Assembly: GCA_036785375.1 (NCBI GenBank)
Contig: JAWMAR010001515.1
Span: 186,001 to 250,000 of the forward strand
Reading direction: 5' to 3'
DNA length: 64,000 bases
From: Leucoraja ocellata
Taxonomy: Eukaryota
How positions within the stretch are numbered: position 1 is the first letter of the stretch; each line of letters opens with the position of its first letter. The position numbers and the translations under genes were made by a program. The notes beneath the pieces were generated by a model, which saw only the letters and a program-made list of their open reading frames with translations, was not told the origin of the DNA and did not search any database. Below are positions 17,310 to 50,765 of the stretch, piece by piece.

Positions 17310-17524
17310 TTAACTAACAAAAGCTTGAGCATCTGTGTAGGCTGAAAGATCAGTCTCAAAGAAGTCCTCCAGCTTCCATTGGAGGGTCTCAAATGTTGGC
17401 CGTTCACAATCATTGTCTTTCCAACAATCTATCATGATTTCATACAGTGGCGGGGGGCATTCTGCAGGGCAAGGCATTCTGTATCCTTTTGCCAACTCCT
17501 GGATTACTTGATAATTTGTCATCC
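17310..17524 (-). CDS. FRK: FRK last coding exon (kinase C-lobe and regulatory tail)
   Basis: (G)MTNYQVIQELAKGYRMPCPAECPPPLYEIMIDCWKDNDCERPTFETLQWKLEDFFETDLSAYTDAQAFVS*; acceptor tttcag; TAA stop. Confidence 0.95.
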
Positions 17525-17887
17525 CTGAAATAAAGAAAACGTTCAACATTTTACAAAATTTTAAAAACACAGAAACAGTTAATAAATGTGCCATAAATTT
17601 CACAAAAGTTACATATTTTTTCATTTTTAACTTTTTATTAAAAAACGCTTCAAAAGCTATTACTAATTCCATGAGAGGGGTTACTAGTCTCATCTTCAGA
17701 CAGTATCTGCCGCATGTATTTAGTCTGTCTGCAGCAATATTCGGATTTGCAACAAGTTTGTTTACTAGCATAAATATGACACACATGCGGAAACTGTTCC
17801 TAATTTGGATTTCCATTTGCTCAAACCGCTCCAGAAAAGTTCAAGAAGGAAGGAAAGATGTCAGCATCTTAGTGATCCTGAATTTGA

Positions 17888-18662
17888 AGGACCTGTCCCA
17901 CTTAGGCGATTTTTCAGCGGACCGATTGTCAAGTTCGAGGCACTCGCCTGAAAAACCGGGAACTGGAACGGCGACTGTCAGAGTGAAACACACAGACACA
18001 CACCTCGCGAAGGCGGGGGCCAGGACAAATGGGGGGAGCGCTGTCTGAAATTCACACGGTGCAAAGCCAAAATAATAGACACACAACACGATGAACAGTG
18101 TACGTTAAGTCCTTTAAAAGAGGGGGGAGGGGGGAAGGGGGAGATGGGAGCGGGGGGTGGGGGGGGGGGGGAGGAGTGGAGACACTTTTAAGAAGCAGAC
18201 AACTTTTAGTAAGCCAGTGATACACAACTGTGAAGTTTGGCGGGAATTTAATATTACCGGTCGGTTATCCTTGGTTCTGAAAATTCGTGCTTGCGTATTT
18301 TTTCCCCAATGAGCCAATGAAAATGCCCGGTCAGCAAAGGCGATTACCTAAAACAACCTACGACTACCTCGACTACCCATAACTATATGGCGATCCCACT
18401 ACAACTGCACCTACAACTACAGGATTATTGATTTTTCCATGGCGACCAATTTTTGATCGCAGAAAATTTTTCAACATGTTGAAAAATTTACGGCAACCAT
18501 ACTGTGGCCGCGACTAGTTCCCAGAATGTGGGAACTCCTCGCGACTACGAAGGAGACTCACCAGAGACCACCAGCGAACATCTGGCGACCATGTGGTGAT
18601 CATGTGGCGAGTGCAGAGTCTCCTGCACAGTCCTAAAAAGTCGCCTAAGTGGGGCAGGCCTT
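17888..18662. mobile_element. PIF/Harbinger-like non-autonomous element in the last FRK intron
   Basis: TIRs AGGACCTGTCCCACTTAGGCGA / TCGCCTAAGTGGGGCAGGCCT; internal CGAC-rich short repeats; same TIR family as 21073. Confidence 0.8.
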
Positions 18663-18685
18663 TATGGATATTAAGTGATAAACTA

Positions 18686-18853
<168 letters not shown>

Positions 18854-19090
18854 CTAATGATATCAAAAATGGTATCAGTAACCATGTATCTAACAGTTCA
18901 AATAACATAATAAATTATATTGACAAGATATTGGCATTATATTTTGCTGATCAGGGCTCAATGTCCACACTCATTGCTCAGAATCAGCATTGTTCCTCAC
19001 AACCACATTCAGTCGTCCAACATGCATATCAGCCCATGTCTGTTGTTTAAATGAACAATAAAATGAATGGAATATAATTGTTATTCTTAC

Positions 19091-19272
19091 CATAAAAACT
19101 CGGGCAAGTCCAAAATCAGCTACCTTACAGATGTTGTTCTCCCCAACCAGAACATTCCTGGCAGCTAAATCACGATGAATATAATTTTGAACTTCCAGAT
19201 ATGCCATTCCTGAAGCTACTTGCGCCGACATTTCCAGTAGGTCACTTATGGTCAAACTCATTCCCTGGTTTT
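19091..19272 (-). CDS. FRK: FRK kinase exon (catalytic loop, DFG), 182 bp
   Basis: [60 protein letters not shown]; caacag acceptor and gtaaga donor. Confidence 0.95.
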
Positions 19273-19504
19273 CTGTTGAAATTAATATATGGCAAATATT
19301 ACATTTCAAAAATTATTTCCATTTGTCCTTAAACTGTCTTATCTAGTAATAAATAAATCACTGGGTCTTAAACCTCTCATTGCCAAGTGTCTTCTGACAA
19401 AATTAAAGTCTGAATACAAGATCTGTTTACCATGAAATTGAGCTTATTGTACAGCCTTGTTTGAATTCAGAATACTTCCTATGGTTTAACTTCATTAAAA
19501 ATAG

Positions 19505-19690
19505 TCAATGGATATTTTTAAGGTGGAAATTGACAGATTCTTTATTAGTCAGGATGCCAGAGGTTGTGGGGAAAAGGCAGGAGAATATGGTTGAGAGGAA
19601 AAGATAGATCAGCCATGATTAAAAGGCATAGTAGACTTGATGGGCCAAATGGCCTTATTCTACTGCGAGAACTTATGAACTTATGTATGC
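19505..19690 (+). mobile_element. CR1 3' tail fragment
   Basis: ggggaaaaggcaggagaat..agatcagccatgatt..gatgggccaaatggcc, matching other CR1 ends here. Confidence 0.65.
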
Positions 19691-19694
19691 AGTA

Positions 19695-20225
19695 ATTTCA
19701 ATTTCAAAAACATAAAGTGCAAGTGAAATGAACTTGCCAGCAGTGGTACAATGAAAAAAGAACACCCAAAAACACAATAAAAATTTAACACAAATATCCA
19801 CCACAGCATTCATCACTGTTCTGGAATGCAGAAAAATTGGCCAGTCCTCCTCCATTTCCCCCGTGGTCGGGACCTCAACCCTCCGCAGCCGCCGCTGCGG
19901 CGTCCAGATGTGCAGACAGGTAAAAGTCCAGGTAAGTCCAGAATCAGCTCTTCCCCACCGGAGACCGCAGCTTCAGGTTGGTGTAGGCCACAGGCCGGCG
20001 GTCGAAGATTTAAAGTTCCCGGCGCGCCGCAGCCAGAAGCACCACAGACCGCAGAGCCGGCGGTTGAAGCTCCCCTCCAGGGGTCCCCGGCGAGGGACCC
20101 TGCTCCTGATGGTAAGTCCCCACCGCGCCCGCGGTAGAAGTAGGCAGCGGGCAGGCAGTGGAAGCCTCTTCTCCTCCGGGGTCCCCAACGACGGATCCCA
20201 GGCTGCGTTACCTGGAGCTATGACC
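19695..20225 (-). mobile_element. Unclassified GC-rich interspersed repeat with LINE-like 3' tail
   Basis: CpG-rich body; tail similar to 41265-41350 and 62536-62775 (gtgaaatga..aatttaacacaaa.atcc.ccacagca). Confidence 0.5.
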
Positions 20226-21072
20226 TTTTAAGGTGATGAAAAGTTATCAACCAGATGAAATCAGACCTATTTCTTAATTTACAAACTGCAAAGGAATTTT
20301 TTCCACGTAAATGTCACCTGAAATTAAAGGTATTTTGTCAAAATTGGCATTTGCAAACCTTGTTTAGGTAGTGTAGTATTCTTGACATCTAAAGATTCTT
20401 AATCAAGATTCCATTTATTATTTGGCATAATCAAATTGAAGCAAACAAATGGCCAAACAAAGTATGGGTGAGAAAGAACTGCAGATGCTGGATAAAATCG
20501 AAAGTAGACACAAAATGCTGGAGTAACTCAGCGGGTGAGGCAGCATCTGTGGAGAGAAGGAATGGGTGACATTTCGGGTCGAGACCCTTCTTCAGACTGC
20601 TGTCAGAGGGGGTGGGAAACTGATAGAAAGTGGGTGGGGGCAGTAGGACAAGGGAGAACTGGGAAAGGGGAGGGGAAGGAGGGAGAAAGCAAGGGCTATC
20701 TGAAATTAGAGAAGTCAATGTTCATACCGCTGGGGTATAAACGATCCAAGCGAAATATGAGGTGCTGTTCCTCCAATTTACGCCGGGCCTCACTCTGACA
20801 ATGGAGGAGGCCCAGGACAAAAAGGTCAGATTGAGAATGGGAGGGGGAGTTGAAGTGCTGGGCCACTGGGAGATCAGGTTAGTTACGACGGACTGAGCGG
20901 AGGTGTGTTCAGCGAAATGATCGCCAAGCCTGCACTTGGTCTCGTCGATGTAGAGAAGTTGACACCTGGAACAGCGGTTGCAGTAGATGAGGTTGGAGGA
21001 GGTGCAGGTGAACCTCTGCCACACCTGGAAAGACTGATTGGGTCCTTGGATGGAGTTGAAGAGGGAGGAAAA

Positions 21073-21173
21073 TGGGCCTGGTCCACTTAGGCGATTTTTC
21101 AGCGGACTGCCGGTGATGTGACTGCATAGTCCTCTGCAGTTGCCTAAAAAGTCGCCTAAGTGGGACAGGCCCG
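21073..21173. mobile_element. 101-bp Harbinger-like MITE (deletion derivative)
   Basis: TGGGCCTGGTCCACTTAGGCGATTTTT...AAAAAGTCGCCTAAGTGGGACAGGCCCG with AAA on both flanks, inside the Penelope-like element. Confidence 0.85.
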
Positions 21174-22000
21174 AAAGGGACAAGTGTAGCTTCTCCTGCA
21201 GTTGCAGGGGAAAGTACCCAGTGAGGAGGTGGTTTGGGTGGGAAGGGACAAATTGACCAGGGAGTTATAGAGGGAATGGTCTCTGTGGAAAGCAGAAAGA
21301 GGTGAAGATGGGAAGATGTGGCCAATAGTGAGATCACGTTGGAGGTGGTGAAAATGTCGGAGGATTATATGTTGTATGCGATGGCTGATGGTGTGGAAGG
21401 TGTGGACAAGGGGGACTCTGTCCTTGTTACAAATTGAGGGAGGGGGAGTAAGAGCGGAGCTGCGGGATATAGAGGAGATCCCAGTGAGTGCCTCATCAAC
21501 AATGGAAAAGGGGATGTTCCATAAAGTTCCATAAAGAATGTGGACATCTCCTATGCCCAAATGAAACACCTCATTCTGGGCGCAGATGCGGCGTAACGGA
21601 GGAATAGGGAGTTGGGGATAGAGTCTTTACAGGAAGCAGGGTGGGAAAAAGTGTAGTCAAGATAGCTATGGGAGTCAGTGGGTTTGCAGTCGATGTCGGT
21701 CAGTTCTGTTACCTGCGATGGAGACGGTGAGGTCTAGAAACAGTAGTGAGATGTCTGAAATGGTCCAAGTGAATTTGAGAGCTGGATGGAAATTAGTGGT
21801 GAAGTGGATGAAGTCAGTGAGTTCTGCATGGGTGCAGGAGGTAGCACGAATGCAGTCGTCAATGTAGCGGAGGTAGAGTTCAGGGATAGGGCCAGTGTAC
21901 GCCTGGAACAGGGATTGTTCGATGTATCCTACAAAGAGGCAGGTATAGCTAGGGTGCCCATAGCTAGGCCTTGGATTTGGAGGAAATGGGAGGAGTCAAA

Positions 22001-22792
22001 GCATAAATCCTGGCCAAAATAGAGCCAAAATAAAGCAGAGGATTCATGCATTTACAAGGCCTGTTTGCCCCTTTCTGTGAAAGAAGCTACAGGATGCTAG
22101 CTGGTGCCGGGATGTCTAGGTCCCAGATCAATACCTCATATAAGGAAGGTCCAAATGTCTTAGCAATTGATAGTATGTATGATAATTTTCTAGAGAAACT
22201 CTAAGGTATTGTAAATGCATGGGTTTGATTGGATTACTGCAGAGGGATTGTAAATAATGTAAATAATGTTGCAAAAACAGTTACCCTGCTGTTTGTTGAT
22301 TGGCCAGAGTGTGAAGCCCGGGCTGAATTGTTTGTATTCCAGGGTAAATGTTGAATTATTGAGTTAAACTGACTTCCTTCCAGAAGCTTCTGTAAGAAAC
22401 ATTTTTTGGAACTCTTTGTAATTGGGTTGGGGAACTGTCAATAATACTTTGATGTAATTGATATTTATGATTGGTTTGTAAGGTGAACCACCCCTATGTT
22501 GTTCGGTCCCTGAAGGTTTGTTGACTTATAAAAGGTAGCCCCCATTTAGATCGATGTCGATCTTCTGGAAGGGCGCTTGGGACTTTGTGACATTTTGGTA
22601 GTGTCTGCTTGCACGAGGCTGAAGGGCTTTGTCAGGCAGAGACAAGGATCAAACCCACGGTGGTTTAGGTATCATATTGGGGAATTAGTTGTGTGTTCAA
22701 AAATAAAGATTAGATGGTCCAATGCTTGACTCAGTGTTTTACTGAACTAGACTAAGGGGGGTGGGGGGTAATAGGCTAGGAGCATATTTACA
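22001..22792 (+). mobile_element. Solo-LTR-like insertion
   Basis: Interrupts the Penelope-like RT; TATAAAA 22527-22533, AATAAA 22702-22707, ends TTTACA; no 5' TG seen. Confidence 0.5.
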
Positions 22793-23261
22793 AAAGGAGA
22801 CATTGTTCAGGGTAAGGACCAGCTCCGCTAGGCGGAGGAGTATAGGTAGACGGAAATTGGCTGTTCTGCGGTCGAGGAAGAAACTGAGGGCTTTAAGACC
22901 CTCCTGGTGGGGGATGGAGATGTAGAGTGACTGAACGTCCATAGTAAAGATGAGGGAGTAAGGTCTTGGAAAACGGAAGTCATGAAGGAGACGAAGAGCG
23001 TGTGAGGTGTCTTGGACATAGGTAGGGAGGGATTGGACCAGAGGGGATAGGATGGAGTCGAGGTATGTGAAAATTAGTTTGGTGGGACATGATCAAGCAG
23101 AAATAATGGGTCTGCCAGGAAACAGTTACACTCAGTTTCTCCTCACCATCATCTGTATACTGTCTTTCAGAGATCACATGAATATTGCAATTGTAGCTTT
23201 AACATGTACCTTGCCTTCACATTCTTGGATTTCTTGTTTAATTCTCTATTTGCAAACTTCT

Positions 23262-24480
23262 ACAGATGCACCATGGAAAGCATATTGTCAGGTTGCATCA
23301 CAGCTTGGTTTGGGAACAGCTCTGCCCAAGACCGTACGGAATTGTAGAGAGTTGTAAATGTAACCCGGTCCACCAAACGGCCCAGACTTCCCACCATTGT
23401 CTCAATCTACACTTCATGCTGCATCAGAAAAACAGCCTCTGTATCAGACTTGTCTTGCCCCAGTTATTCCTTCTTCTCTATACTCTCGTCAGGCAGAAGG
23501 TACCAAAACTTGAAAGCGTACACCACCAGAATCAGGAACAGATTCTTTCCCTCTATTATCAGGCTTACGAATCCATCGAACCATCCACTCCACAGTCAAA
23601 AAGGCACAACACAGGATGTACTTCCTGCGGCAGCTGAGGAAGCACAATCTGCCACAGGCAATGATGGCCCAATTCTACACGGCCATCGTAGAGTCTGTCC
23701 TCACCTTCTTCATCATAGTCTGGTTTAGCTCAGCCACCAAGCACGACACCTGGAGGCGGCAGCGAATCGTCTGATCAACAGAGAAGGTTATTGGCTGCAA
23801 CCTTCCCTCCATTGATGAACTGTACACTGCAAGGGCCAGGAAGCGAACGGGCAAGATCATCTCTGACCCCTCTCACCCTGGCCACAAACTCTTTGAATCA
23901 CTTCCCTCTGGAAGGCGACTCCGTATTGTCAAAGTTGTCACAGCCAGACATAAAAACAGTTTTTATCCACGAGTAGTTGCTCTACTCAACAGCCAAAAAT
24001 CTGTAGCCTCCCTTTGATCTGGTATTTTGTTGGTTCACATGCTTGATCAATGGTGTTTTATCATTCATGTCTTATTTTTATTAATCTTTAGTGTTTTCTG
24101 AGTCATTCGTATCTGTCACTGTATGTCATGTTGCTACTTGTGCGCGGAGCACCAAGGCAAATACCTTGTATGTGAATACTTGGCCAATAAACTTACTTAC
24201 TTACTTACTTACTTACTTATGAATGGTCCTTCCATAAGCTAGGTTACTGGTGGATTCAACTCTACCCCATTGTGGACTTTGGACTTTGTCCCTGAAAATG
24301 ATGCACTACAATGTAGAGAATTATAATCTGTCCTCTGCACCTCATTTGCCCTGTTTATTGTACTTGAGTTTGACGTGATTATATTTATGTATAGTATTAT
24401 CTGATCTGTTTGGATAGCATGCAAATCAAAGCTTTTGATGGTACCTCCGTACATGACAATAATAAACTAAAACCTAAAAT
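23262..24480 (+). mobile_element. Two nested Rex1/Babar 3' fragments
   Basis: KKAQHRMYFLRQLRK..SHPGHKLFESLPSGRR; (ACTT)n tail near 24191-24220; the older copy's UTR resumes after it. Confidence 0.82.
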
Positions 24481-24519
24481 TAGACTAGAGTCTTGGATGT
24501 TAGGTTCAGTACTGGGCAG

Positions 24520-24705
24520 AGTGGGTGGACAAATGGCTCAACTGGGAGAGCCTCCCAGCTCCCGCAACCTGAGTTCAATCCTGATTTCAGGTGCAGTTTG
24601 TATCTTCTCCTCATGACTGCATAGGTTTCCACTGGGTGCTTTGATTTCCCCACCACAGCCCATAGATGTGCAGTCGGTAGATATTTAATTGGCCAGTGTT
24701 AATTG
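24520..24705 (+). mobile_element. Degraded HE1/V-SINE-like copy
   Basis: ctgagttcaatcctgatttcaggtgc..ttctcctcatgactgcataggtttcc resembles the SINE at 16480. Confidence 0.5.
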
Positions 24706-24719
24706 ATGTAGATTTGAGT

Positions 24720-25330
24720 GACAGAGTTAGAGTCTTACAGCATGCAAACAGGCCCTTCAGCCCACCTTGCCTACACCGGCCAACATGTCCCACCAACACT
24801 AGTCCTACCTAACTGGCAGCTCATTCCATACACCTACCTCCCTTTATATGAAACAGTTACTCCTTGGATTCCTCTGAAATCTTTCTCCCCTAACCTTAAA
24901 CCTATGTGCTCTGATCCTCGATTCCCTCATTCCCAGCAAGACTCTGTGCATCTACCCAATCTATTCATCTCATGATTTTGTACACCTCTATCAGATCACC
25001 CCCTCATCCTTCTGCGCTCCAAGGAATAGATTCCTAACCTACTCAACCTCTCCCTATAGTTCAGACCCTCGGTGCCTGGCAACATCCTCGTAAATCTTTC
25101 CTGTAACACGCTGCCCAAAACTGAACACAATACTCTAAATACGGCCTCACCAATGTCTTATACAACTGCATTATAACCTCCCAGCTTCTATACTCAATGC
25201 TGTGACTGATGAAGGTCAATAAGACAAAAGCTTTTTTGACCACCCTATCTACCTGTGATGCCACTTTCAACAAACTATGTACCTGTACTCCTGGATTCCT
25301 CTGCTCTGCAACACTACCTAGAGCCCTCCT
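24720..25330 (-). mobile_element. CR1 LINE 3' fragment
   Basis: QVDRVVKKAF..EYRSWEVIMQLYKTLVRPYLEYCVQFW. Confidence 0.85.
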
Positions 25331-26207
25331 CCCCAAAGATTAATAGAATCTGGGAATGTGGTGAGTTTAGAATACAGGGAAAATACAGGAAAACATTGCT
25401 CTGTGAGCCAGAATAGACAGGATGAGTCAAAGGGGCTTCTTTCTATGTTGTATGGAAATGTAGTTATTTCCTCCTAGTAATTCCATCATTTGCTGTGGCC
25501 ATTCTCTTAGGCAGAACATTCTTCATTATTTGCTTCATACGTTACACCACGCATCCTTTCCATCATATGCTTTCTTCCTAACAACATTTTAAATCTTTCT
25601 TGCTCCACATTAGCTCCAATATTGAAACTCTTCTAAGTGTTTTTGCTTTGATCAGACGATCATTTTAAACAGCATGCATTGACGTTAAGCAGTCTGCTCC
25701 TCCAACTGGCTCCAACCTGACAAGCTTTTGACATCTATATCCTGCCTTGCAGTATATCCTGTTCATTAATCAGCCTGCCTCATCAACCTATACCTCTGCT
25801 CATTCTCTTGCCCTTGCTTAGAATACACTCCGTTGCTTTCTATTATTGCAGCGCTAATCCCAGCCTTCAATCCCTGTTTTCATCATTTATTTAGAAAATA
25901 CCTCCTTGATTAATTAAATATGATCCAACGAAAGACCTTTGAAATGAGGTAAACATTGTAAAATTAATGTTCACACGCAACGTCATGTGACATTGAACCA
26001 GCCTTAATTAACATCTTCTGATATCAAAATTAAAATTACCAAAATCTTAATAGGATGCAAAATTGACACCAGTGCTTAATAGTCAGAGATAATAGGGATT
26101 GCTGATTCACAACATGAGAAGAAAAGTACATTGAGGTCTTCTCATCAGATGAAAATAACTTAAAAACAAATGGAGGTCATGGTTATATAACACTAACCAT
26201 GAGACAT

Positions 26208-26435
26208 CTATAGACAATAGACAATAGGTGCAGGAGTAGGCCATTCAGCCCTTTGAGCCAGCACTGCCATTCACTGTGATCATGGCTGCTGATCTTCAAT
26301 CAATACCCCGTTCCTGCCTTCTCCCCATATCACTTACTCTGCTATCTTTAAGAGCTTTATCTAACTCTCTCTTGAAAGCATCCAGAGAATTGGCCTCCAC
26401 TGTCTTCTGATGCAGAGAATTCTACAGATTCACAA
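26208..26435 (-). mobile_element. CR1 3' tail
   Basis: Reverse complement of the CR1 end (ctatagacaatagacaataggtgcaggagtaggcc). Confidence 0.75.
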
Positions 26436-26660
26436 TCTAGAAACAAATCTATATTACTAAATCTCTGATCTTGACCGCTTTTGGCCCACTGTGCTGCGAT
26501 TTCTGACAGAACGCTGCCACCTAGGGCCGTCATTTTTGGCCACCTCGCTCAGAGCCCCCCTCCGCCTTACGGGTGCAGAGGATTTTTCCCATCGATGACA
26601 AATCAGAGAGATATTAATGTTTAAAAAAGATTCACCATTCTCTCTGCTGCCTCTGCTGAA

Positions 26661-26712
26661 GGGAGGGGGAGCGACTATAAAACCAGGAAGTGGTGTGCCT
26701 CACTCAGTCTCT
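26661..26712 (+). promoter_or_regulatory. Pol II core-promoter-like motif set (G-rich box, TATA, ETS-like, Inr)
   Basis: GGGAGGGG; TATAAAA 26676-26682; CAGGAAGT; TCAGTC with its A at 26706, 30 nt from the TATA start. Confidence 0.45.
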
Positions 26713-26821
26713 GCAAGATGGATGAAGCTTAGGGTCATGTCTCTCTGAGCTCTGAATAACATGGACAAATGTCTACACAACTGTGAGTACCCTTAATGTG
26801 GTTTGAAAATGAAAATATGGT

Positions 26822-28572
26822 TTGTTTGAAGTAAAAAGGCACTGCCTGCAAATGGTTGTTTGGGTGCTTTGGCTTGAAGTTGAAAGGCACTACTTACTGC
26901 AAATGGTGGCTTGGGAGCTTTGGCTTGAAGTTGAAAGGCACAACATACTGCAAACAGTGGCGGGTGGTATGCTTGAAGTTGAAAGGCACTACTTACTGCA
27001 AATGGTGGCTTGGGTGCTTTGCTTGAAGTTGTAAGGCACTACTTACTGCAAATTATGGCTTGGGTGATTTGGCTGGAAGTTAAAAGGCACTACTTACTGC
27101 AAATGGTGGCTTGGGTGCTTTGGCTGGAGGTAAAAAGGCACTGCCTGCAAATGGTTGTTTGGGTGTTTTGGCTTGAAGTTGAAAGGCACTACTTACTGCA
27201 AATGGTGGCTTGGGTGCTTTGCCTTGAAGTTGAAAGGCACTACTTACTGCAAATGGTGGCTTGGGAGCTTTGGCTTGAAGTTGAAAGGCACTACTTACTG
27301 CAAATGGTGGAGGGTGATTTGCTTGAGTCGAAAGGCACTACTTATTGCACATGGTGGCTTGGGTGCTTTAGCTTGAAGTTGAAAGGCACTACTTACTGCA
27401 AATGGTGGCGGGTTATTGGCTTGAAGTTGAAAGGTACTTCTTACTGCAAATGGTGGCGGGTGCTTTAGCTTGAAGTTGAAAGACACTACTTACTGCAAAT
27501 GGTGTCATGAAGTCGAAAGGCACTACTTACTGCAAATGGTGGCTTGGGAGCTTTGGCTTGAAGTCGAAAGGACCTACTTACTGCAAATGGTGGCTTGGGT
27601 GATTTGGCTTGAAGTTGAAAGGCACTACTTACTGCAAATGGTGGCTTGGGTGTTTTGCTTGAAGTTGAAAGGCACTAGTTACTGCACATGGTGGCTTGGT
27701 TGCATTGACTTGAAGTTGAAAGGCACTACTCACTGCAAATGGGGGCTTGGGTGCTTTGCTTGAAGTTGTAAGGCACTACTTACTGCAAATTATGGCTTGG
27801 GTGATTTGGCTGGAAGTTGAAAGGCACTTCTTACTGCAAATGTTGGCTTGGGTGCTTTGGCTTGAAGTTAAATTGCACTATTTACTGCAAATGGTGGCTT
27901 GGGAGCTTTGGCTTGAAGTTGGAAAGCACTACTTACTGCAAATGATGGCTTGGGTGCTTTGGCTTGAGGTAAAAAGGCACTTCTTACTGTAAATGGTGGC
28001 TTGGGTGCTTTGGCTTGAAGTTGAAAGGCCCTACTTACTGCAAATGGTGGCTTGGGTGCTTTGCCTTGAAGTTGAAAGGCACTACTTACTGTAAATGGTG
28101 GCATGAAGTTGAAAGGCACTACTTACTGCAAATGGTGGATTGGGTGTTTTCCTTGAAGTTGAAAGGTGCTACTTACTGCACATGGTGGCTTGGGTGGTTT
28201 GGCTTGAAGTTGAAAGGCACTACTTACTGCAAATGATGGCTTGGGTGCTTTGGCTTGAGGTAAAAAGGCACTGCCTGCAAATGGTGGCTTGGGTGCTTTG
28301 CCTTGAAGTTGAAAGGCACTACTTACTGCAAATGGTGGCTTGGGTGCTTTGGCTTGAGGTTGAAAGGCACTACTAATTGCAAATGGTGGCTTGGGTGCTT
28401 TGGCTTGAAGTTGAAAATCACTACTTCCTGCAAATGGCGGCTTGGGTGCTTTGTCTTAAAGTTGAAAGGCACCACTTACTGCAAATGGTGGCATGAAGTT
28501 GAAAGGCACTACTTACTGCAAATGGTGGCTTGTGTGCTCCGGCTTGAAGTGAAAAGGCACTACTGCAAATGC
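26822..28572 (+). repeat. Tandem minisatellite, 51-bp unit, about 35 copies
   Basis: Consensus GGCTTGAAGTTGAAAGGCACTACTTACTGCAAATGGTGGCTTGGGTGCTTT with shorter variants; explains the 17-aa-repeat ORFs. Confidence 0.95.
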
Positions 28573-28741
28573 ACTTACTTCCTGTTTGCACTGTATATTG
28601 ATTTTAGATACCACTTACGACTGTGATTTTTGGCTATCTTACTCAGTCCCCCCTCCGCTGAGCAGGTGCAGAGAATTCTTCCAATCAATGAAAAATAAAA
28701 GTGTTATTAGTGTTTAAAAAATGTTGAGAATCTCTCTCCTG

Positions 28742-28828
28742 CCAATCACGCCCTGAAAGCCACACCTTTCAACCGGTGGGAGGGGGAGGGGTTATAAAAC
28801 CCAGATGTGTGGGTGTGGCTCAGTCCCT
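28742..28828 (+). promoter_or_regulatory. Second Pol II core-promoter-like motif set (CCAAT, G-rich box, TATA, Inr)
   Basis: CCAAT 28742; GGGAGGGGGAGGGG; TATAAAA 28793-28799; TCAGTC with its A at 28822. Confidence 0.45.
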
Positions 28829-28944
28829 GTATGATGGGGGAGGGAGAGGTCATGACTCTGTCTGAGCTGTGAATCAACTGAACACACTGAATTTCTACTG
28901 AACTGTGAGTTTGGTGTTTTGTGTGGTGTTATGGTGGTTTGACC

Positions 28945-29152
28945 CGGCATGAAATGGTAAGAAGCTGCATTTGAATTTGGTGGCCTTCGACCCTGCTTGA
29001 AGTGGAATGAAACTGCACTTGAATTCGGTGGCCTTGCACCCTGCTTGAAGTGGTTGGAAACTGCACTTGAATTTGGTGGCCTTGCACCCTGCTTGAAATG
29101 GTAGGAAGATGGATTTGAATTTGGTGGCCTTGCTCCCTGCTTGAAATGGAAT
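28945..29152 (+). repeat. Tandem repeat, about 45-bp unit, 4-5 copies
   Basis: GAAACTGCACTTGAATTTGGTGGCCTTGCACCCTGCTTGAAGTGG-like units. Confidence 0.9.
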
Positions 29153-30397
29153 TTCAAGGAATAGTCATGAGTCACCTGCCAGCCCACCAGCCGTGAGTAA
29201 GCTGCCAGCAGATCAGGCTTGAGGGACTGAGCTGCCACCCCAAGAACCCATACCAGCACTCCAGAAAGCCCCCCCACTGGCCTCCAATATTGGAATTGGT
29301 GGAGAGGTGGAATATTGCGTCGGGGACCAGCCCTCCCGTGTGAACATGGGACCCAACGGGTCCCACTTATTCTAGTATAATATACAATGCATGACCAAAC
29401 TAAAGAGAAAGCTACCTTCAACTCATTAGAACGACAGAAAGGTAGGTTCTAATGGAAGGTCACTAAAGGAAACCATTGACTCCATTTCACTTTACATGGG
29501 GAACATCTGATATGTTTTTGTTTTCTGCAATCTCTATTTATTTAATATCAGAAATACATATCAAACTAAAGAAGCATTTTTGTATCCAGTATAAGCCAGG
29601 CATGAGACAGGAAAAACTGAAAAAGAGATGGGGGTGCAAGGGACAGCGCCCCTGGCAGGGGTAAAAGGGTGCAGCGCCCCCTTTATTCAGAATTGTTTTG
29701 ATAATTGTACCTTGAAATGACACTGTTTTCTTGCCTGTTCACCCTTTATTTATACTGTCATTTTTTTATTGTACCTTAAAATAACACATTTTACTTGCTT
29801 GTCACTTCTTAATTTACACAGAAAATTTGTGATAATCATACCTTAAAATCACACCAACTCCTTGCTTGTTTACACTTAAGTCATATTGAAAATGTTTTAT
29901 ATTACACCTACACCTACTTGTAACATACCTGTTCCTTGCTTTTTTGATAATTATTCCTTGAAATGACACAATTTCCTTGCTTGTTTACCCGTAATTTATT
30001 CTGTAATTTTATTTACCTTTAACATATTTTACCTGATTGAATCAGGTACAAAAAAGAACATTGTAGTGTCTATGACATACAGACTCTTGAATGCAGTGTG
30101 AGCGTTGTGTACGTGTATGTAACCCTGGTACGGTAGGCCAAGGGGACAGAGCACTAGCCGTGGAGATGTGCCTGCAAAGACGGTCGGCCCGCACCCGCAT
30201 ACATGCTTTCCGCTAAAATAGACTCCGTGTATTTCCACGTGCTCAACCATCGGCGCAGCGCCTCACTGTCTCGCGGAAAGCCATTAATAGCGGAGATTTA
30301 GACAGATTTTTTTTTAACCAAATTTCAAAATCCACGGAGCCGCGGAGAAATGTCATGTCTGAAATCATTCAATGTAATGTAAACAAAGTAAAATAAT

Positions 30398-30502
30398 GTG
30401 AGAGAGAAAGGAGAGAGAGAAGGAGTGACAGAGAGAGAGAGAGAGAAGGAAAGCAAAAGAGAGAACGAGAGAGAGAGAGAGAGAGGGAGAGAGAGAGAGA
30501 GA
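30398..30502. repeat. (GA)n-rich microsatellite
   Basis: Direct reading. Confidence 0.9.
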
Positions 30503-31528
30503 CATGTTTATCAGCTGCTGAGAGCATCGCTATGGATGGTAAGGATGAGGAGGCAAGGGTTAGTCCTCAGGGAGATGGCGAAAGTTACGGGAGAGGGAGG
30601 GGTAAATACTGAACACGTCTCAGTCTATATGAAGCAGTACCACACCACACAATGTAATTAACTGCTGGGCCACCTGGGAGGCACTTTATTTTAGAGTGTG
30701 CAGTATGGTCTTTAGGCAATGTGCACTGATATTTACCGAGCAAAACAGCACTCCAAAATGAAAGGGATGTGTTTGCCCCCAACACCACTGCTTTCGGACG
30801 AGTGATTAGTCACATTGAAACTTCATTCAACAAGAATGAACTTAAAACACTTAGAAGTCTCATTAGAAGTTACCTGGGGAAAAAATGGCACTATTCCTAA
30901 CACATGTCAAAGACAAGTATTTGGTGCAACTTTGGGATCTTTTCTGCATGTTAAAATATACCATTGAGTAGATTGAAACAAATTATGTTTTCCACAAGCA
31001 TTTTGATTTCCAAAACACAAAAAATATATTTTGAACGAAGCTCCTAGAATCAGCCTTTAGCCAATGTGAATTCTAGTTAACGTTTACAACATTTGCTTTA
31101 AAGAGTCTCAAAAATGTTAATAAAACAAATCTCTAAAAAAAGTGCAAAAATTGAAATGTTTTCCTCACAACATGTTTTGGTACCATGGAATCATTTTAGA
31201 TGCATCAGAAATAGGTTTTGGTTTGCATTACAACCTGATATGCAAAAGCTTCATCATCATTGTAATCAAAACTACTGTACATCACCCAGGGATAAGCTTA
31301 CCATAAATTTAAACTGAAGCTAATTCTTCTTCAAAAGTAACCATCTGTATGAACACACTCACATTAATATCACAAGGATACTTGGAGACTGCTCATTTCC
31401 TACATTTCCGTTCCCTTTGGAATTAATTGCAAACTACTTATTCTCATGATATATTAATGCTGTATCACATTGTTCTTTAGTTCTGTGAACCAAAGCATTG
31501 GTTGATTCTAAATAGCTACCATACTTAC

Positions 31529-31687
31529 TGTGTAAGTGGTCAAGCAAGCTGCCATTTTTCATTAATTCGGTAATAATGTAAATTGGCTCTTCAACAGTGC
31601 ACACAGCATACAGCTGAATTAGCTTGGGATGTCTTAATTTTTTCATTAATTGTGCTTCCCTTAGGAAGTCCTGCTTGGCCATCGTAC
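31529..31687 (-). CDS. FRK: FRK kinase exon (alphaC helix to hinge), 159 bp
   Basis: (G)[52 protein letters not shown]; ttttag acceptor and gtaagt donor. Confidence 0.95.
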
Positions 31688-32034
31688 CTAAAAATAAACA
31701 CATTAAACAAATTCTAATCACCTTTACTCTTATCCAGGAAGATCCATGATAACATCTAATAGGCATATTATATTCCACACATAGTTGACAGTGATATATC
31801 TTCTTTGAAAATAAAATCATTCCTGTCCAATATTATTTATTTGAAAAATAAATTTCACTCCTGTTCGATGTCATAGTCATAGTCATAGAGCACAGACACA
31901 GGCTCTAGGGCCCAATTTATTGCTGCTGTCCAAAATGCTCATCTAAGCTAATCCCATTTGCTTGTGTTTGGCCCATGTCCTTCTAAACCTTTCCTAGAGT
32001 ACACCTAATATAATATGAATACATTGAGGTAGCA

Positions 32035-32568
32035 ATTCCTAATTTGAGGAAGGGCATCCTTGCTATTGAGGCAGTGCAGTGTAGGTTCACAAGGTTAATC
32101 CCCGGATATCGGGACTGCTATATGAGGAAAGATTGGAAAGACTGGGCTTGTATTCACTAGAATTTAGGATGAGAGGGCATCTTAAAGAAACGTATTAAAT
32201 TATAAAAGGACTGAACAAGCTAGATACAGGAAAAATGTTCCCATTGATGGAGAAGTCCAGAACCAGGGACCACAGTCTAAGAATAAAGGGTAGGCCATTT
32301 AAAACTGAGATGAGAAAAAACTTTTTCACCCAGAGAGTTGTGAATTTGTGTAATTCTCTGCCTCAGAGGCAGTAGAGGCCAATTCACTGGATTAATTTAA
32401 AAGAGAGTTAGATAGAGCTCCTGGGGCTAGCGGAATCAAGGGATTATGGGGAGAAGGCAGGCATGGGTTACTAATTGTGGATGATCAACCTTGATCACAA
32501 TGAATTGCGGTGCAGGCTCGAAGGGCCAAATGGCCTCCTCCTGCACCTATTTTCTATGTTTCTATGTT
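32035..32568 (+). mobile_element. CR1 LINE 3' fragment
   Basis: Homologous to 8695-9236, with (TTTCTATG)n tail. Confidence 0.85.
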
Positions 32569-32880
32569 TAATTCTACTTGAAGCTAAGTGTATTAGCGCC
32601 AAACAGCTCACTGGTCCCACAAACTTCCAGGCCATTATTTTCCAATGCTGATCTGTTCAAAATTAAAAAGAAATGTTGTTTCAAGGTGAAAATGGAAGAA
32701 AGGCATAGGTTTGTTTCTGCGACTGCTGAGTGGAATTACTTTTATTAACCTCCCATATACCTACTCACTATGATGCTACTGTATCACTATTTCATTGAAA
32801 TCCTTTCATCTAGCATTACCTAATTTCCGTTCTTATATTTCCAGGCAATAGCAAAGTTCAACCAAGATCCAATGTTGATT

Positions 32881-33035
32881 TGTGTAGGAAAGACCTGCAG
32901 GTGCTAGTTTAAATCAAAGGTAGACACAAGATTCTGGAGTAACTCAGCGGGACAGACAGCATCTTTGGAGAAAAGGAATGGGTGACGTTTCGGGTCGAAG
33001 CCCTTCTTCAGACTGATGGGTGATATTTTGGGTTT
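32881..33035 (-). mobile_element. Penelope-derived terminal fragment
   Basis: Same terminal sequence as the 20470 copy. Confidence 0.8.
32981..33014 (-). ncRNA. Minimal type I hammerhead ribozyme-like motif (Penelope-associated)
   Basis: Minus strand AGT-CTGAAGA-A-GGG-CTTCGA-CCC-GAAA-CG-TC-ACC: CUGAnGA/GAAA core, stem II, palindromic ACGU in place of stem III. Confidence 0.6.
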
Positions 33036-33039
33036 AGCC

Positions 33040-34545
33040 AAGTAATGTTCTCAGCTAATGACTCGTCTTCAGTGTGGACGGGCTTGCAAGAAATCACCAG
33101 CTACAAGAGGAAAACCCCCCACTCCTTGGGCAATCGTCTGCTGACCACAGACCTGAACGAGTTCTATTGCAGGTTTGAAAGACAGAAACATAACCCCCTC
33201 CCCCACCCACTCCTCTCCAATCACCAATCACCACTTCACACCTACTTACAGCCTGACTCCAGTTTGCAAAAACTGGACCCTCCTCCACTATCCGCCCCCT
33301 TCTTGCTGCCCAACATCAGTCTGGCCACTTCTCCATCATTAGCAATAGAAATTGAGGAGGTGGAAAAGTTATTCAGGAGACAGAAAAGCAGGAAATCTCC
33401 AGGACTGGAAAATGTTTCCCCCTCTACCCTCAAGCTCTGTGTCGAACAACTGGTACCAGTCTACACAAATATTTGCAATCAGTCCCTGCAAACCTGCACT
33501 GTCCCTGCCTGCTTCAAAGTCTCCACTATATAGTGATCTGCCTACAGACAGGAGGTGACACAGCTAGCATCCTGGTGCCATCGCAACAACCTGGGGTTCA
33601 ATGTTCTTAAGACAGTGATTGTAGACTTTAGGAGCACTTCCCTCCCCCCCATTCACCATCAACAACACTACAGTCACAACTGTGGAGTCATTAAAGTTTC
33701 TTGGAACCATCATCTCAAGGGACCTTAAATAGAAAGCCACAGTGGAGTAGGAATTCCACAATCAAAAACGCCCAACAGAGGATTTACTTCCTGCGGCAGC
33801 TGAGAAAACCCAACCTGCATGTCTGAAGAAGGGTTTCGGCCCGAAACATTGCCTTTTTCCTTCGCTCCATAGATGCCGCTGCACCCGCTGAGTTTCTCCA
33901 GCTTTTTTGCGTACCTGCCACAGGCAATGATGGTCCAGTTTTACACTACCATCATAGTCTGTCCTCACTTTCGCCACCATGTTCTGGTTTGGCTCAGCCA
34001 CCAAGCATGACATCCGGAGGCTGCAACACATCGTTCGATCAGCCGAGAAGTTGTTGTCAGCAACTTTCCCCCCATTGACGAACTGTACACTGCAAGGGCC
34101 ATGAAGCGAGCGGGTAAAACCATCTCTGGCGCCTCTCAGGTAGACAAAAATGCTGGAGAAACTCAGTGGGTGAGGCAGCATTTATGGAGCGAAGGAAATA
34201 GGCAACGTTTCAGGTCGAAACCTTTCTGCTGACCCCTCTCACCCTGGCCACATATGCTTTGGCACTTCCCTCGGGGAGGTGACTCCAGACTGTCAAAGCC
34301 ATCACAGCCAGACATAAAAATAACTTTTTTTTTCCATGAGCAGTAGCTCTACTCCACTGACAAAAGCCTGTGACCTCTTTTTGCTCTGGTATTTTATCTT
34401 CATGTTTAAATTATAATGTTTTATTTTTAATTTTCTACTGTATATCGTGTTTTTATCCTTGCGAAAAAAGCACCAAAGCAAATTCTTTGTATGTATACTA
34501 TACATACATGGCTAATAACATTTATTCAATTAAATTCAATTCAAT
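33040..34545 (+). mobile_element. Rex1/Babar LINE, internally deleted, with two Penelope-end insertions
   Basis: SVWTGLQEITSYK, DLNEFYCRFE, KSPGLENVSP..LKLCVEQL..VPACFKVSTI; 3' region with (AATTC)n tail. Confidence 0.85.
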
Positions 34546-35219
34546 GGTTTGCAATTTGTATCACTGTACTTTGTCAGCATAGATTCAATGCCTCTGATGG
34601 CTTCCTTTAAGTAGTCCATTCAAGTCGTCAAGTCACGTTTATTTGTCACATACACATACGAGATGTGCAGTGAAATGAAAGTGGCAATGCTCACGGACCT
34701 CTGTGCAAAAAGACAAACAACCAAACAAACTATAAACACAATCATAACACACATATACCTTTACATAATAAATAATGGAAGGAAAAACGTTCAGTTTTGT
34801 CATGTTTAGTCTAGCTTAGTTTATTGTCACGTTTAGTCTAGCTTAGTTTATTGTCACGTGTACCGAGGTACCGTGAAAAGCTTTTGTTGCGTTCTATACT
34901 GTCAGCAGAAAGACAATACATGTTTACAATCAAGCCATTTATAGTGTATATTTACATGATAAGGGAATATGTTTGGTGCAAGATAAAGCCAGCAAAGACC
35001 GATCAAGGATAATCCGAGGGTCACAAAAGAGGTAGTTAGTAACTCAGCACTGGTCTCTGATTGTGGTAGGGTGATTCCGTTGCCTGATAACAGCTGGGAA
35101 GGAACTGTCCCTACTAACAAACTTTGTGATGCCTTAGGGGAAGAAGTCTCCAGTGAGGGTACAACATAGCATCCCTAACAGTGACTATATTGTAGAGCAG
35201 AGTACAGATTAACATTTAT

Positions 35220-36482
35220 ATGGGTTTTGTGAGGAAGATACGGCAATAATCATGGACGATAATAATTATCAAGCTCACAAAGTGTATTCAGAATGGTTTG
35301 TCAGAGTGAAACAGTGAGGAACCGACCAGGGAGCAGGCTATTTGAGGTCTGGTATTGTAAAAGGATACAAGATTAATTAGATATCTTATAATAAAGGATC
35401 CCCCAGGAAAGATTCTTCACAGCATTGCAAAGTTTCAAATTCAGTTGAAGGTAAGAAATTTGAGTCAGAAACCTGTGTGCTAGACTTATACAAAGGCTAT
35501 TACACTTGTAGGGGCTCAGAGGTGGTGAAAGCAGATGGCAAAATAGGTTAAAGGGTAAGATAATGAATCAACTGTGACAGATATTTAAGAAATCATTTCA
35601 CAAATTTTCAAAATATGCGTATTCTGCTACAAAGAAAAGACTCTACAAAAATGATGCACGTTCCATGGGCATCTACTAAAGTGTAGGATGGTGCTACAAT
35701 GAAAGAAACACCATACAATGGTGTGAAAACATAGTGGTAGTAGGCCAGAGGACCAGAAATCTTTTAGTAACGAACGATCAATAACAAAAAAAATTTCAGA
35801 GAATGGGAAAATATAGAGTACAAGAGAAAACTAGCAAATTATATTAAAACAAGTTAAGATCTACAGGTATATACCTTAGTTCACTAAAGTAAATGTTGGT
35901 CCCTTAGAGGATCAGGTAGGAGGGAAGGGGGGATAATAATGGGATACAGAATTGGCTTCATGGTTGGAAGCAGAGGTGCTGGTTGAAGGGTAATGTTCGG
36001 ACTGGAGGCTTGTGACTAGTGCTGTGCCTCAGGGATTGGTGCTGGGCCCCATTGCTGTTTGTCATTTCTATCAATGATTTGGATGAGAACGTACAGGGCA
36101 TAATTAGTAAGCCTGCAGGTGGCACTGAAATAGATGGTATCGTGGACAGTGAAGATGGTTATCAAGGGCTGCAACGTGATTTTGATCAGCGAGGCAAGCA
36201 GGCTGACCAATGGCAAATGGAGTTTAATATAGGACAGCACCTGCCCCAATGTGATTACTGACCACCTAGATTCCCCAGTCTCTCTTATTGCCTCCTGTCA
36301 GGTGTGATACAAGGTGCAGTCTCCCCCCCTTTAGTTATCTGCACGCTTTTTCCCACTGTGAATACTTCTCCATGACAACAAGCTCAGGGTATTGAGGCCA
36401 ATATGGGTTCAGCCACAGTCTTGTTGACTGGTGGATCAGGCTCAAGGGACCATCAGCTTACTCCTACTCCTGTTTTCTATGT
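35220..36482 (+). mobile_element. Old degraded CR1 fragments
   Basis: PLLFVISINDLDE..WQMEFN at 36019-36261; CR1-like tail near 36400-36482. Confidence 0.6.
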
Positions 36483-37464
36483 ATCTTGAGTTTCTTCTGC
36501 TTCTTAAAAGCTTTCCATGGTCCTAGTTTCATGTAATCAACACACTTTTCACTGTTTCCAAATCCAGATAACTTATAATAGACCAACTAAAAAATAGTCC
36601 AAAGCACATAGCATCATTCAGCATCATTGACTTAAATTTTGTTTCCAATCTTCCAAACTATTTCCCATATGCCTCTTGTGTCCTTATCTGTCCATAAGTT
36701 TCTTTATCAGTTACTAATTATTTTTACAAAATTACAATATAATAATTTCTCCCTATTTAACTTATTCATTACCTACATCTTCACATCTCGACATAATGGC
36801 CTTGAACTTCTCTCATGTAGGTAAATATGATTTGGTATTGTTAGCACAGGCGGTACGGTAAAAAATAATTCCATCCAGGTCAGTCATGAATGTGGCGCAT
36901 ACACTCCTGGAACCCATTGATATGTACGCTGATTTTAAGCTCAAAATAACAATGATACAGGTCTTAGCAAAAAGGTGGCACTTTGTTTTGGTATTAGTTT
37001 AAAGGCCCAAACTTAAGTGGTCCATTGTTGAGGTGATTTTCCTTGAGTTACATTCCTTCGTATCAATTTTAATCCCTCCATACTATCGCTGCCACTGCTC
37101 CGAGTAACTCCCCTCCTTCCACAAACCCTCACTTCTCTGCACAGCTCATGGTCAATTTCCTCGGTGCCCCTTGGACCCCGAGTTATTGCCCTTCCCCAAA
37201 TTTCTCCTCAACCTTCCACTTGTGATTCATATCTTCTGCTTCTCTACCAAGTCATCCACATGGTCCTCTCTCAACCACTCCACGCCTCCCACCCTTGATA
37301 ATCCCTTTGTGACTATTTGCATGTGAAAGGTGTACCCTGCTGACATAGTTAATAACAAAGCTTCAAGAGCCCTGCCCCATACTGGACGATGCTTCACACA
37401 TGTAGTCAATGCTAAGCTATTATCTCTTATACTAGCTTTCAATACCTTGATTAGCATTCCTCTA

Positions 37465-37740
<276 letters not shown>

Positions 37741-39062
37741 TCAATAGCACACATGAAATCAGTGATGAGAATCTTCAAATTTATGAAAAAAAACATAAGA
37801 AACCACATCATGAAATCTAGAAGAACCACTTAGCTTGATTTTGTCTTCACTACAAAGCGGGGAGCTTAGATTTGAAAACTGCTGTGAAGACGCTCAGTTC
37901 ACCATACTTTGTTTGAGGGGACTGCCTGCCGCCAAAAGAAACCTGGCTGTTTGTAAGGATCCATCTCGGATAGTCGGGGTGAAACCAGATTTACTAAAGA
38001 AAGAGGACATCTCAGATGTCCTAGAGTGGTAAACCTCATCATGGGAGGATGAGGCAAAGACAAAGAAATTGACAGGAAGCTCCTCCCCCCCCCACACACA
38101 CATAACTTCTCTTTCCAGCTTTCTCTCTCCTACCAATCAGTCTGAAGAAGTGTCGCAACCCCAAAACATCATCCGCCCATTCCATCCATGGATGCTATCT
38201 CACCCTCTGAGTTCCTCCAGTGTTTTGTTTTGTGTTTTTTGGAGCCTTCCCTCATAGTGGAAAACTTTGATCCCGCTTTGTGGGAATGTTTGTGTTAAGA
38301 CTTTGTGTTATGTGCACTTTATTACTCGTATGGCTGTATGGCGACCACCCATTTCACTGTACCAATTGGTACATGTGGCAAATAAATGTATCTTGTATCT
38401 TGTATCTTGTTTTGCTCCAGTACAGCATCTCTGTTCTAGGTTCTTCTAATGATTACTTCTTGCTGCACTAACACAGGAATGATTGTCCCACAACAAGATT
38501 AGAGAATGCAGGCTGGCTGTTAGGTCAGCACAGTAAATGGAGAATTGGACCAAGAGTTGCATCTACATGGAGCTATTCGTAAAGACCCATAACAAGTTAC
38601 TCAGTTAAACAATGTTTGCCATCCAGTCACTATGTTCTGTTGGGAGGCACAGAAGCCTGCTAAGCCTGCTAAGTTTCACAATGATTGACAAACCGGGAAA
38701 AAAATTAACCAGGATTATAACGAAATGGGCTCCAGGGCCATAATGTGTACTTTTGCTTCATTTCTTTGAGATGTGTTTGTGCCATGCAGGGTAAAGAGCT
38801 CTACATCTTGAAGTGCCAATGAAAAAGTGGTATGTGTACCAGAACCAAAACTATCAACTAGAACACAAATATCATAAATATCTCCTGCCTGACAAAACAC
38901 ACAGCCAAAGTCTTTAGGAATTTACTGACCAGCTCAATGAACACATTTCATCTGAAAACTTCAAAAAACTTTGTGACAAATAAAAACATTCTCCTAGTAC
39001 TACTACAGAAAATTAAAATTATATAAATTATGCAATAATTTTAATTTTGCATATTATCTTAC

Positions 39063-39226
39063 CTTCTGGCATGGTGCCTCAAGCTTTGTACACAAGCCAT
39101 CTTGCTTCTGCATGTAGTTGTAAACCATTTCTGCCAACGTTTTAAATGTTGATCTTCTTGTAATGAAAAAGCCTCCTTCATCCAACCGTCTGATTTTATA
39201 ATGTTTCACAGTATCTCCATCACGAA
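39063..39226 (-). CDS. FRK: FRK SH2 C-terminal exon, 164 bp
   Basis: (V)RDGDTVKHYKIRRLDEGGFFITRRSTFKTLAEMVYNYMQKQDGLCTKLEAPCQK; ttgcag acceptor and gtaaga donor. Confidence 0.95.
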
Positions 39227-39469
39227 CTGCAAATTAGGTCATAAAAAATAAATAAACAAAACATAATTCAAAATACATTTTATTCAATCAGTTTTTATAC
39301 AGAAGTGGTGATGGTTGATCAATAACAATGTGAATGAGATAACACTGCATTTAAATCAAAGTTTCATTGCCTCTGGGGCTTTGATATGAATTAACTTGGA
39401 CATATCATACTGTTCGAATGGATTTTTAGGCATCAATTAATATTAGTTAAAAAAAATTAAAATAGCGGA

Positions 39470-39603
39470 TAGCAAGCACCCAATGGAAACCCCTGTGGTC
39501 ACAGGGAAAATGTGCAAACTCCACACAGACAGCACCCGAGGTCGGGATCGAACCCGGGTCTCTGGCGCTGTGAGGCAGCAGCTCTACCTGCTGCGACACT
39601 GTG
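39470..39603 (-). mobile_element. HE1/V-SINE-like 5' part
   Basis: Minus strand GTAGAGCTGCTGCCTCACAGCGCCAGAGACCCGGGTTCGATCCC (intact B box), then V-domain start. Confidence 0.8.
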
Positions 39604-39677
39604 TTTGTATGTACTAGGTGAAGAGTAGGACAGTCACACTTCAAACACAGAAAGTTGATTATACAGATGTAACAAGT

Positions 39678-39807
39678 GCAGGAAGGAACTGGGGATGCTG
39701 GTTTAAACCGAAGATAGACACAAAAAGCTGGAGTAACTCAGCGGGAGGGCAGCATCTCCGGAGATAAGGAATGGGTGACGTTTCAGATCGAGACCCTTCT
39801 CCAGGCA
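39678..39807 (-). mobile_element. Short Penelope-derived unit with 9-bp TSD
   Basis: GTAACAAGT at 39669-39677 and 39808-39816; contains a degenerate hammerhead core. Confidence 0.75.
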
Positions 39808-43267: not shown

Positions 43268-43310
43268 CATTCTATTCTATTCTATTCTATTCTATTCTAT
43301 TCTATTCTAT
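43268..43310. repeat. (TATTC)n microsatellite, probable LINE tail
   Basis: Follows AATAAA near 43259. Confidence 0.85.
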
Positions 43311-43624
43311 AATACAGACTCTCATCCCTAAAGTTCTGGGCCTGGCCTTGGGGACTCCAGGCATTTCCTCCACCCTGACCCTCAATACTGATGTCCCTCA
43401 GGCTTATGTTATCAGTCCTTCGCTCTTCGCTCTATACACCATGGCAGTGTGGATAAGTACAACGCCAACTAGATCCTTGAGTTCACCATAGATGCCACTG
43501 TTGTCAACCGGCTCAACTACAATGATTCGAAAGAGTACAGAAAAACATAAAAAACCTCATGCCATGGCGATAGGCCAACAGTCTTGCCCTCATCCTCAGC
43601 AAGACAAAAGATTAAGCAGAATGG

Positions 43625-50551: not shown

Positions 50552-50716
<165 letters not shown>

Positions 50717-50765
50717 TTAAATAGGAACTGTGAAATGGTTGGCAGCAAGGCAAGCAGAACATCAT

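Follow-up and report, generated by a model that had tools for sequence, protein, structure and literature searches.

The insertion at 26448–29375 of the window, i.e. the whole stretch of 64,000 nucleotides of Leucoraja ocellata DNA analysed here, raises the question of how one transposable element came to carry two homologous heads, each directly followed by a minisatellite array of its own, and of what function such a head may have served. A preceding sequence-only reading had taken the element for a Helitron in which one head-plus-array cassette was duplicated and diverged, with each head possibly able to transcribe its array.

The element, its family and its host gene

The element is a non-autonomous canonical Helitron (Helitron1) of a high-copy family, and its parts are collected in Table 1. 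Canonical Helitrons are defined by TC and CTRR ends, a 3' palindrome about 10 nt from the end, and insertion between A and T without target duplication (PMC4067079, used, like the other papers cited here, in excerpt). The TC start, 3' hairpin, CTAG end and A-to-T insertion named by the sequence-only reading were all located: the termini are those of Helitron1 (5' TC, 3' CTRR), and the 19-nt hairpin at 29347–29365 (z −2.7) ends 10 nt before the 3' end, in line with the Helitron1 palindrome of 16–20 nt lying approximately 11 nt from that end. Family-wide, 61 of 64 3' ends close with CTAG or CTAA, 60 of 72 5' ends open with TC, and A and T flank 47 of 56 full-length copies without a consistent target duplication, which fits Helitron1. 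Joining of the flanks yielded a spanning match among the fetched loci, indicative of an empty site, for 18 of the 56, and 8 of these 18 best matches, read by eye, crossed the junction free of gaps. No inverted pair was found linking the ends of the window element in the manner of the subterminal inverted repeats of Helentron, HINE and DINE-1 elements, and the family flanks are A and T, not the TT of Helentron insertions.

A RepHel-coding partner is expected to share at least 80% over both the first and the last 30 nt (PMC4224331). This degree of sharing was found with L191 and L195, the frames of which are broken: the first 30 nt of the window element agree at 25/30 with both and at 28/30 with the RepHel-bearing L208, and the last 30 nt agree at 28/30 with L191, L195 and L210. 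The sole Rfam match over 26000–30000, to a snoRNA (E 0.76), was dismissed as weak and outside the element. Four degenerate 72-bp repeats at 29696–30013, 320 bp beyond the element, are probably part of another repeat; the window also contains small GC-rich tandem repeats of 43 and 28 bp (5065–5470) and 180 bases read as N (7379–7558).

Table 1. Features of the window element and of its host gene
Feature	Position in window	Strand	Remarks
Src-related kinase gene (FRK-like)	17200..50800 (approximate span)	-	seven coding exons with AG/GT borders
Whole Helitron	26448-29375	+	T26448 to G29375; host A26447 before, host T after
5' terminus of Helitron	26448..26476	+	TC start after host A
Head 1	26477..26788	+	subterminal region with predicted core promoter, non-coding exon and splice donor; RepHel-bearing lineage
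TATA box, head 1	26676..26682	+	sequence
ETS-like GGAAGT, head 1	26686-26691	+	follows the TATA box
Initiator-like TCAGT and DPE-like GGTCA, head 1	26704..26737	+	A at 26706; GGTCA at +28 to +32
Predicted splice donor GTGAGT, head 1	26783..26788	+	sequence
Array 1	26821..28572	+	51-bp minisatellite, ~34 units, including variants of 37 and 48 bp; predicted to lie in intron 1
Head 2	28577..28910	+	5' end of a second Helitron lineage, most likely, minus its first 29 nt
Head 2 motifs	TATA 28793-28799; TCAGT 28820-28824; GGTCA 28848-28852; donor 28905-28910	+	
Array 2	28942..29149	+	48-bp minisatellite x 4.3; common to free-standing single-module elements
3' subterminal region	29150..29346	+	homologous to 3' end of RepHel-bearing relatives
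3' hairpin and CTAG end	29347..29375	+	8-bp stem, 3-nt loop; before host T

In the element's own genome (3.44 Gb), first-look candidates numbered 2542 for the 3' end, 4897 for head 1 and 3520 for head 2, figures which are not copy numbers, the best 40 being scored in each case. About 10 kb was then fetched around the best-scoring matches, 39 anchored at the 3' end and 37 at the 5' end, with the window itself and duplicate matches omitted. The order terminus, head 1, array 1, head 2, array 2, 3' end recurred in 34 of the former and 26 of the latter, together 60 of these 76 best-scoring loci, with varying array length, bearing out genome-wide the two-module layout read from the window; the loci departing from this order are truncated, deleted or below thresholds. 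The 73 loci with a 5' end correspond to 61 distinct sites by flank, and full-length copies span 1.3–6.8 kb (median 2.0 kb, n = 63). Twelve pairs among L031–L136 have a common flank, several differing in element length (1459 bases in L049 vs 2024 in L103; 4984 in L045 vs 3835 in L053). Five copies (L035, L045, L062, L066, L201) have inserted immediately next to the 3' end of another Helitron and form head-to-tail clusters with it.

The exons of the host gene lie on the minus strand, and the element, on the plus strand between the exons near 31667 and 19177, is therefore antisense and intronic. Its earlier placement as antisense in FRK intron 5 thus stands as to orientation, intronic position and a Src-related kinase host, and is less secure as to the name, since the SH2 exon scored 65.7 bits with HCK and 62.7 bits with FRK, a near-tie; for one kinase exon, PTK6 was the best named Src-related match. 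The FRK layout comprises eight exons. Numbering the intron as the fifth presupposes one more upstream coding exon than the seven found, and the motif scan did not reveal it; these exon matches agree with the name FRK but do not prove it. A second copy of the host region (L100/L138, at G000:C190:2200000-2214100), approximately 97–98% identical over more than 10 kb, has the insertion in common with the window, its 3' end being deleted, and represents either a segmental duplicate or a divergent haplotype.

Origin of the two modules

The homology claimed for the two heads was corroborated by local alignment of 26517–26788 with 28611–28910, in which 213 identities over 264 aligned columns, together with 44 gap columns, gave a score of 137, the highest score among 300 shuffles being 30; head 2, homologous as it is to head 1, starts further upstream than earlier given, at 28577. 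Array 1 likewise has the proposed 51-bp unit in nearly the proposed number (~34 for ~35), the units being counted over 26846–28564, and the array 2 unit measures 48 bp, not 45. The asserted kinship between the two units is present but weak (shuffle p = 0.014), and a 64-bp unit bridges them at p = 0.002. Across lineages, the array occupies a fixed position after the predicted donor of the head, and its unit differs by lineage (26, 29, 31, 33, 36, 41, 48, 51, 56, 64 or 70 bp). Within one and the same insertion, the duplicate locus L100 holds ~8 array-1 units vs ~34 in the window, with flanks ~97–98% identical. Elsewhere, L106 shows partial head-2 starts repeated within array 1, and L233 an inverted array block.

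Whether the second module arose by duplication within a single element or by fusion of two elements was assessed from the heads themselves. Duplication of a head together with its array does occur in this family, as young partial head-1 copies: one to five of them lie inside array 1 in 39 of the 76 loci (the window copy has none), 41 of 65 begin at one base, corresponding to 26619 of the window, at a microhomology with the array unit, and in the head tree they nest among head-1 copies. Extending this process to head 1 and head 2, such that one cassette was duplicated and both copies diverged, would draw on the homology of the heads and on the array units related weakly and through the 64-bp bridge, and would require that free-standing head-2 elements later regained a 5' end. 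The tree places the heads otherwise. It comprises 45 heads, made up of key rows and at most 8 random rows per class out of 208 distinct long heads; head 1 groups with the heads of RepHel relatives, this group is separated from that of head 2 at 100/100, and the single-module L219/L220 are the sisters of head 2 at 99/98; lacking an outgroup, the tree is rooted at its midpoint only, so the order of events rests on parsimony. Moreover, a pattern joining the 5' terminus directly to the head-2 start had 21 exact matches in the genome (control, 0), among them four single-module elements composed of terminus, head, 48-bp array and the same 3' end (L215, L216, L219, L220) and several others with a first head, a 26–33 bp array and a partial second head. 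Since head-2 starts are thus found fused to their own 5' terminus, head 2 of the window would correspond to a 5' end of this kind from which the first 29 nt are missing; in keeping with this, it contains a homologue of nt 30–70 of the terminus of the other lineage, with the diagnostic indels of that lineage. Several families of the head-2 lineage have intact termini, and apparent intermediates exist: in L211 a near-complete second 5' terminus comes after a head and array, and in L137, of related layout, the second module is the same but is preceded by another first head and a 41-bp array. Two lineages of head, each with its own 5' terminus, argue against the duplication that the sequence-only reading proposed for head 1 and head 2, and we regard it as unlikely; the window element most likely arose when two Helitron lineages were fused.

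These observations are most simply explained if two lineages fused and the product was then amplified. The commonest junctions between array 1 and head 2 are variants of a single junction with a 4-nt overlap, and a head-1 element without a working 3' end may have come to lie next to a head-2 element, or have recombined with one, at this 4-nt microhomology, insertion beside a truncated element being an alternative route. RepHel supplied in trans would then nick at the upstream TC and stop at the downstream hairpin, so that the fusion would be amplified from a single origin, and the arrays and partial head-1 cassettes would change in number by slippage and unequal exchange. Taken as a whole, the window element is held here, with fair rather than high confidence, to be a non-autonomous Helitron in which a head-1 module was likely fused to a nearly complete element of a sister lineage, each head likely representing the promoter, non-coding first exon and splice donor of a transposase gene, with a minisatellite in the predicted intron 1.

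The head as a putative promoter, first exon and splice donor

Both heads present, in the same order, a G-tract, TATAAAA, the ETS-like GGAAGT (mutated in head 2 of the window), TCAGT, GGTCA and GTGAGT. The consensus sequences of the TATA box, initiator, downstream promoter element (DPE) and splice donor, along with their canonical spacing, are textbook knowledge, and by motif the heads match an RNA polymerase II core promoter with a first exon in TATA box, initiator, downstream element, spacing and 5' splice site. From the start of the TATA box to the initiator A there are 30 nt in head 1 and 29 nt in head 2, with GGTCA at +28 and +27, respectively; in all lineages keeping both motifs, the TATA-to-initiator offset is 28–33 nt and GGTCA lies at +27 to +29 or +28/+32. 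Across 10 lineages, 29 motif columns are conserved at 0.94 vs 0.77 for 105 others, with a block permutation p of 1e-4 that is optimistic because the motifs were first recognised while reading these very sequences. Conservation in the same lineages drops to 0.49 after the donor.

RepHel-bearing relatives give this anatomy a probable purpose. Among 29 RepHel regions read out of 120 matches, five carry the head 5' of RepHel (L191, L195, L203, L206, L208), the link between the two being uncertain in L203 and the 5' end of L206 lying outside the fetched stretch; the frames are broken in all five, as they are in L192, which retains Helitron_like_N and PIF1 domains. Downstream of the head, these relatives carry a lineage-specific array, a CpG-rich region with a second donor, a GT microsatellite and an AG acceptor, the last situated 17 nt before the RepHel ATG in related coding copies. 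Because the same head stands upstream of RepHel in coding relatives, it is likely to comprise the transposase's own promoter, a non-coding first exon and its splice donor, and since the predicted donor separates head from array, the array would be intronic, in intron 1.

Two other readings of the head deserve fair consideration, and both appear improbable, to a like degree. Instead of belonging to the transposase, the promoter of the head could have been captured from the host together with a first exon and donor, in the manner of HelibatN3, and such capture is documented in bat Helitrons (PMC4778049, PMC4224331). Against this origin, in each lineage observed the head runs on from the terminus without a break; it also sits upstream of RepHel and keeps its motifs across lineages up to ~30% apart. 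Among the 40 best of thousands of candidates scored per search, a listing too short to reveal one, no single-copy host source turned up. Alternatively, it may be no promoter at all and instead a conserved subterminal region bound by the transposase, with motifs matching by chance, in agreement with overall conservation that is no lower in the upstream part of the head than in the motif region (0.86 vs 0.81) and with RNA of other species that gave neither a start nor a splice signal at head 1. Chance matching accords poorly with five motifs in correct order, with the narrow range of the TATA-to-initiator offset in all lineages keeping both, and with the fall in conservation past the donor. A native transposase promoter is thus preferred to both.

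Among sequencing runs, none recorded as RNA was listed as containing the head, a finding that speaks neither for nor against its activity. The RNA evidence consists of four raw runs of other, related species, aligned to head 1 at 82% likeness, runs with small word shares being left out. No start peak was seen at 26706 in these runs, a weak test given that most reads are less than 95% alike and are not 5'-end data, and no loose end fell at the donor of head 1 among the 24 listed of 532. Reads at head 1 derive from both strands and extend across the 5' terminus into many different flanks, bulk RNA depth is lowest over the predicted exon, and one run displayed a threefold strand excess over the TATA region, its reads reaching further upstream. 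RNA at head 1 accordingly looks like passive inclusion in host transcripts. Poly(A)/poly(T) loose ends at 26447, 26628 and 26809 in single-cell runs coincide with genomic A/T runs, and are best read as oligo-dT internal priming. Of the earlier suggestion that each head transcribes its array, the promoter-like character of the heads survives; the donor separates head from array, and the RNA of related species shows neither start nor splicing at head 1.

Within the non-autonomous family, no selection on the promoter motifs was seen when rates of change at motif and other sites were compared (0.041 vs 0.031 changes per site in head 1; 0.029 vs 0.035 in head 2). All three of TATA box, initiator and donor are preserved in 20 of 68 head-1, 7 of 53 partial and 36 of 65 head-2 copies, counts that include some misalignment at the head-1 initiator. 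The motif pattern fits a promoter selected in coding ancestors and then left to neutral decay in the copies, in which the promoters would be mostly unselected, inert leftovers.

Several related elements were encountered in the course of this analysis. A Helitron family with intact long frames (1,500–1,850 aa) does not share the head and was rejected as the direct parent, having no head match, 17/30 at the 3' end and termini below 80%; it may nevertheless be a source of RepHel in trans. Loci L173–L188 (e.g. G000:C2974, C2153, C4112) belong to a Helitron family other than that of the window element, probably young, in which open frames reach 1,764–1,851 aa and 69- and 96-bp repeats lie within the part coding for the N-terminus; on C4112, whole elements are repeated in tandem at a distance of ~11.8 kb. 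In L200 (3750–3910) and L210 (2625–3735, on the reverse strand of the locus), a whole small Helitron-like unit lies upstream of the RepHel gene, its 3' hairpin lacking a CTAG end and running straight into the acceptor and ATG, a layout which suggests that 5' modules are swapped in coding elements too. A further non-autonomous family (L264–L293; 1267 first-look candidates) has the order terminus, head, 65–70 bp array, CpG-rich region, second donor, long GT microsatellite and 3' end, and the CpG-rich region contains repeated YY1-, ETS- and CRE-like motifs. No support was obtained for deriving the second, CpG-rich donor region of coding relatives from an earlier duplicate of the head (p = 0.07, 0.05 and 0.49).

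The element is well explained as a chimeric non-autonomous Helitron, and the part worth following is the candidate native promoter, exon and donor with its fixed minisatellite position. The location of the Helitron transposase promoter is poorly described, and this clade offers a concrete candidate with conserved spacing; it also fixes the birthplace of new minisatellite units, which can be traced from lineage to lineage. Should the heads be active, host transcripts could be altered by promoter-plus-donor cassettes in their thousands; should they be silent, they provide a well-resolved example of ordinary transposon turnover. A more far-reaching conjecture, which we advance as doubtful, is that cassettes of promoter, exon and donor have been stacked repeatedly in this clade, with two to seven in each element and no fewer than three families built independently, since transcription in cis would aid mobilisation. 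The thousands of copies would then act as antisense promoters and as native alternative first exons, and intron 1 would be a fixed nursery of new minisatellites.

Comparison with known systems

In the literature, as far as the excerpts consulted extend and with repeat libraries outside their scope, no account was found of the window family or of a mapped native RepHel promoter in an animal Helitron. The single family described here joins three observations known separately, namely composite elements, double arrays and promoter dispersal. As to the first, Helibat-type canonical non-autonomous Helitrons have the same ends, 3' palindrome and A-to-T insertion (PMC4067079), and in bats new ends arise beside 5'-truncated Helitrons (PMC4778049), a situation resembling that of the window element; composites similar to it may be those in Supplementary Fig. 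4 of the latter paper. In the window family, unlike Helibat as portrayed in these excerpts, two 5' modules with a minisatellite apiece are stacked and have been amplified together as a single family.

Double arrays are exceptionally found in the Cg_HINE elements of the Pacific oyster, non-autonomous Helentrons with satellite-like central repeats, for which recombination of elements was the proposed origin (PMC7492417). These are, as excerpted, Helentrons with subterminal inverted repeats, whereas the window element is a Helitron1 with a full second head between its arrays, a predicted promoter and donor anatomy, and coding relatives to which it can be traced. Internal minisatellites have also been described for Xenopus and Drosophila elements (PMC12001565, PMC9659126, PMC4067079): those of Heli2Xen are common to autonomous and non-autonomous members (PMC12001565), and the central tandem repeats of Drosophila DINE-1 are likewise shared by both (PMC9659126). 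Compared with what these excerpts report, the array here is fixed after a predicted donor and its unit is lineage-specific.

The nearest parallel to the putative promoter is HelibatN3, in which the NUBPL promoter and a splice donor exon trap were dispersed by a Helitron, giving the combination of promoter, first exon and donor that is predicted here, and which can drive chimeric transcripts (PMC4778049). The promoter of HelibatN3 was captured from the host and its activity demonstrated, on the evidence of that excerpt, whereas those predicted in the window family are likely native to the transposase gene and number two to seven per element.
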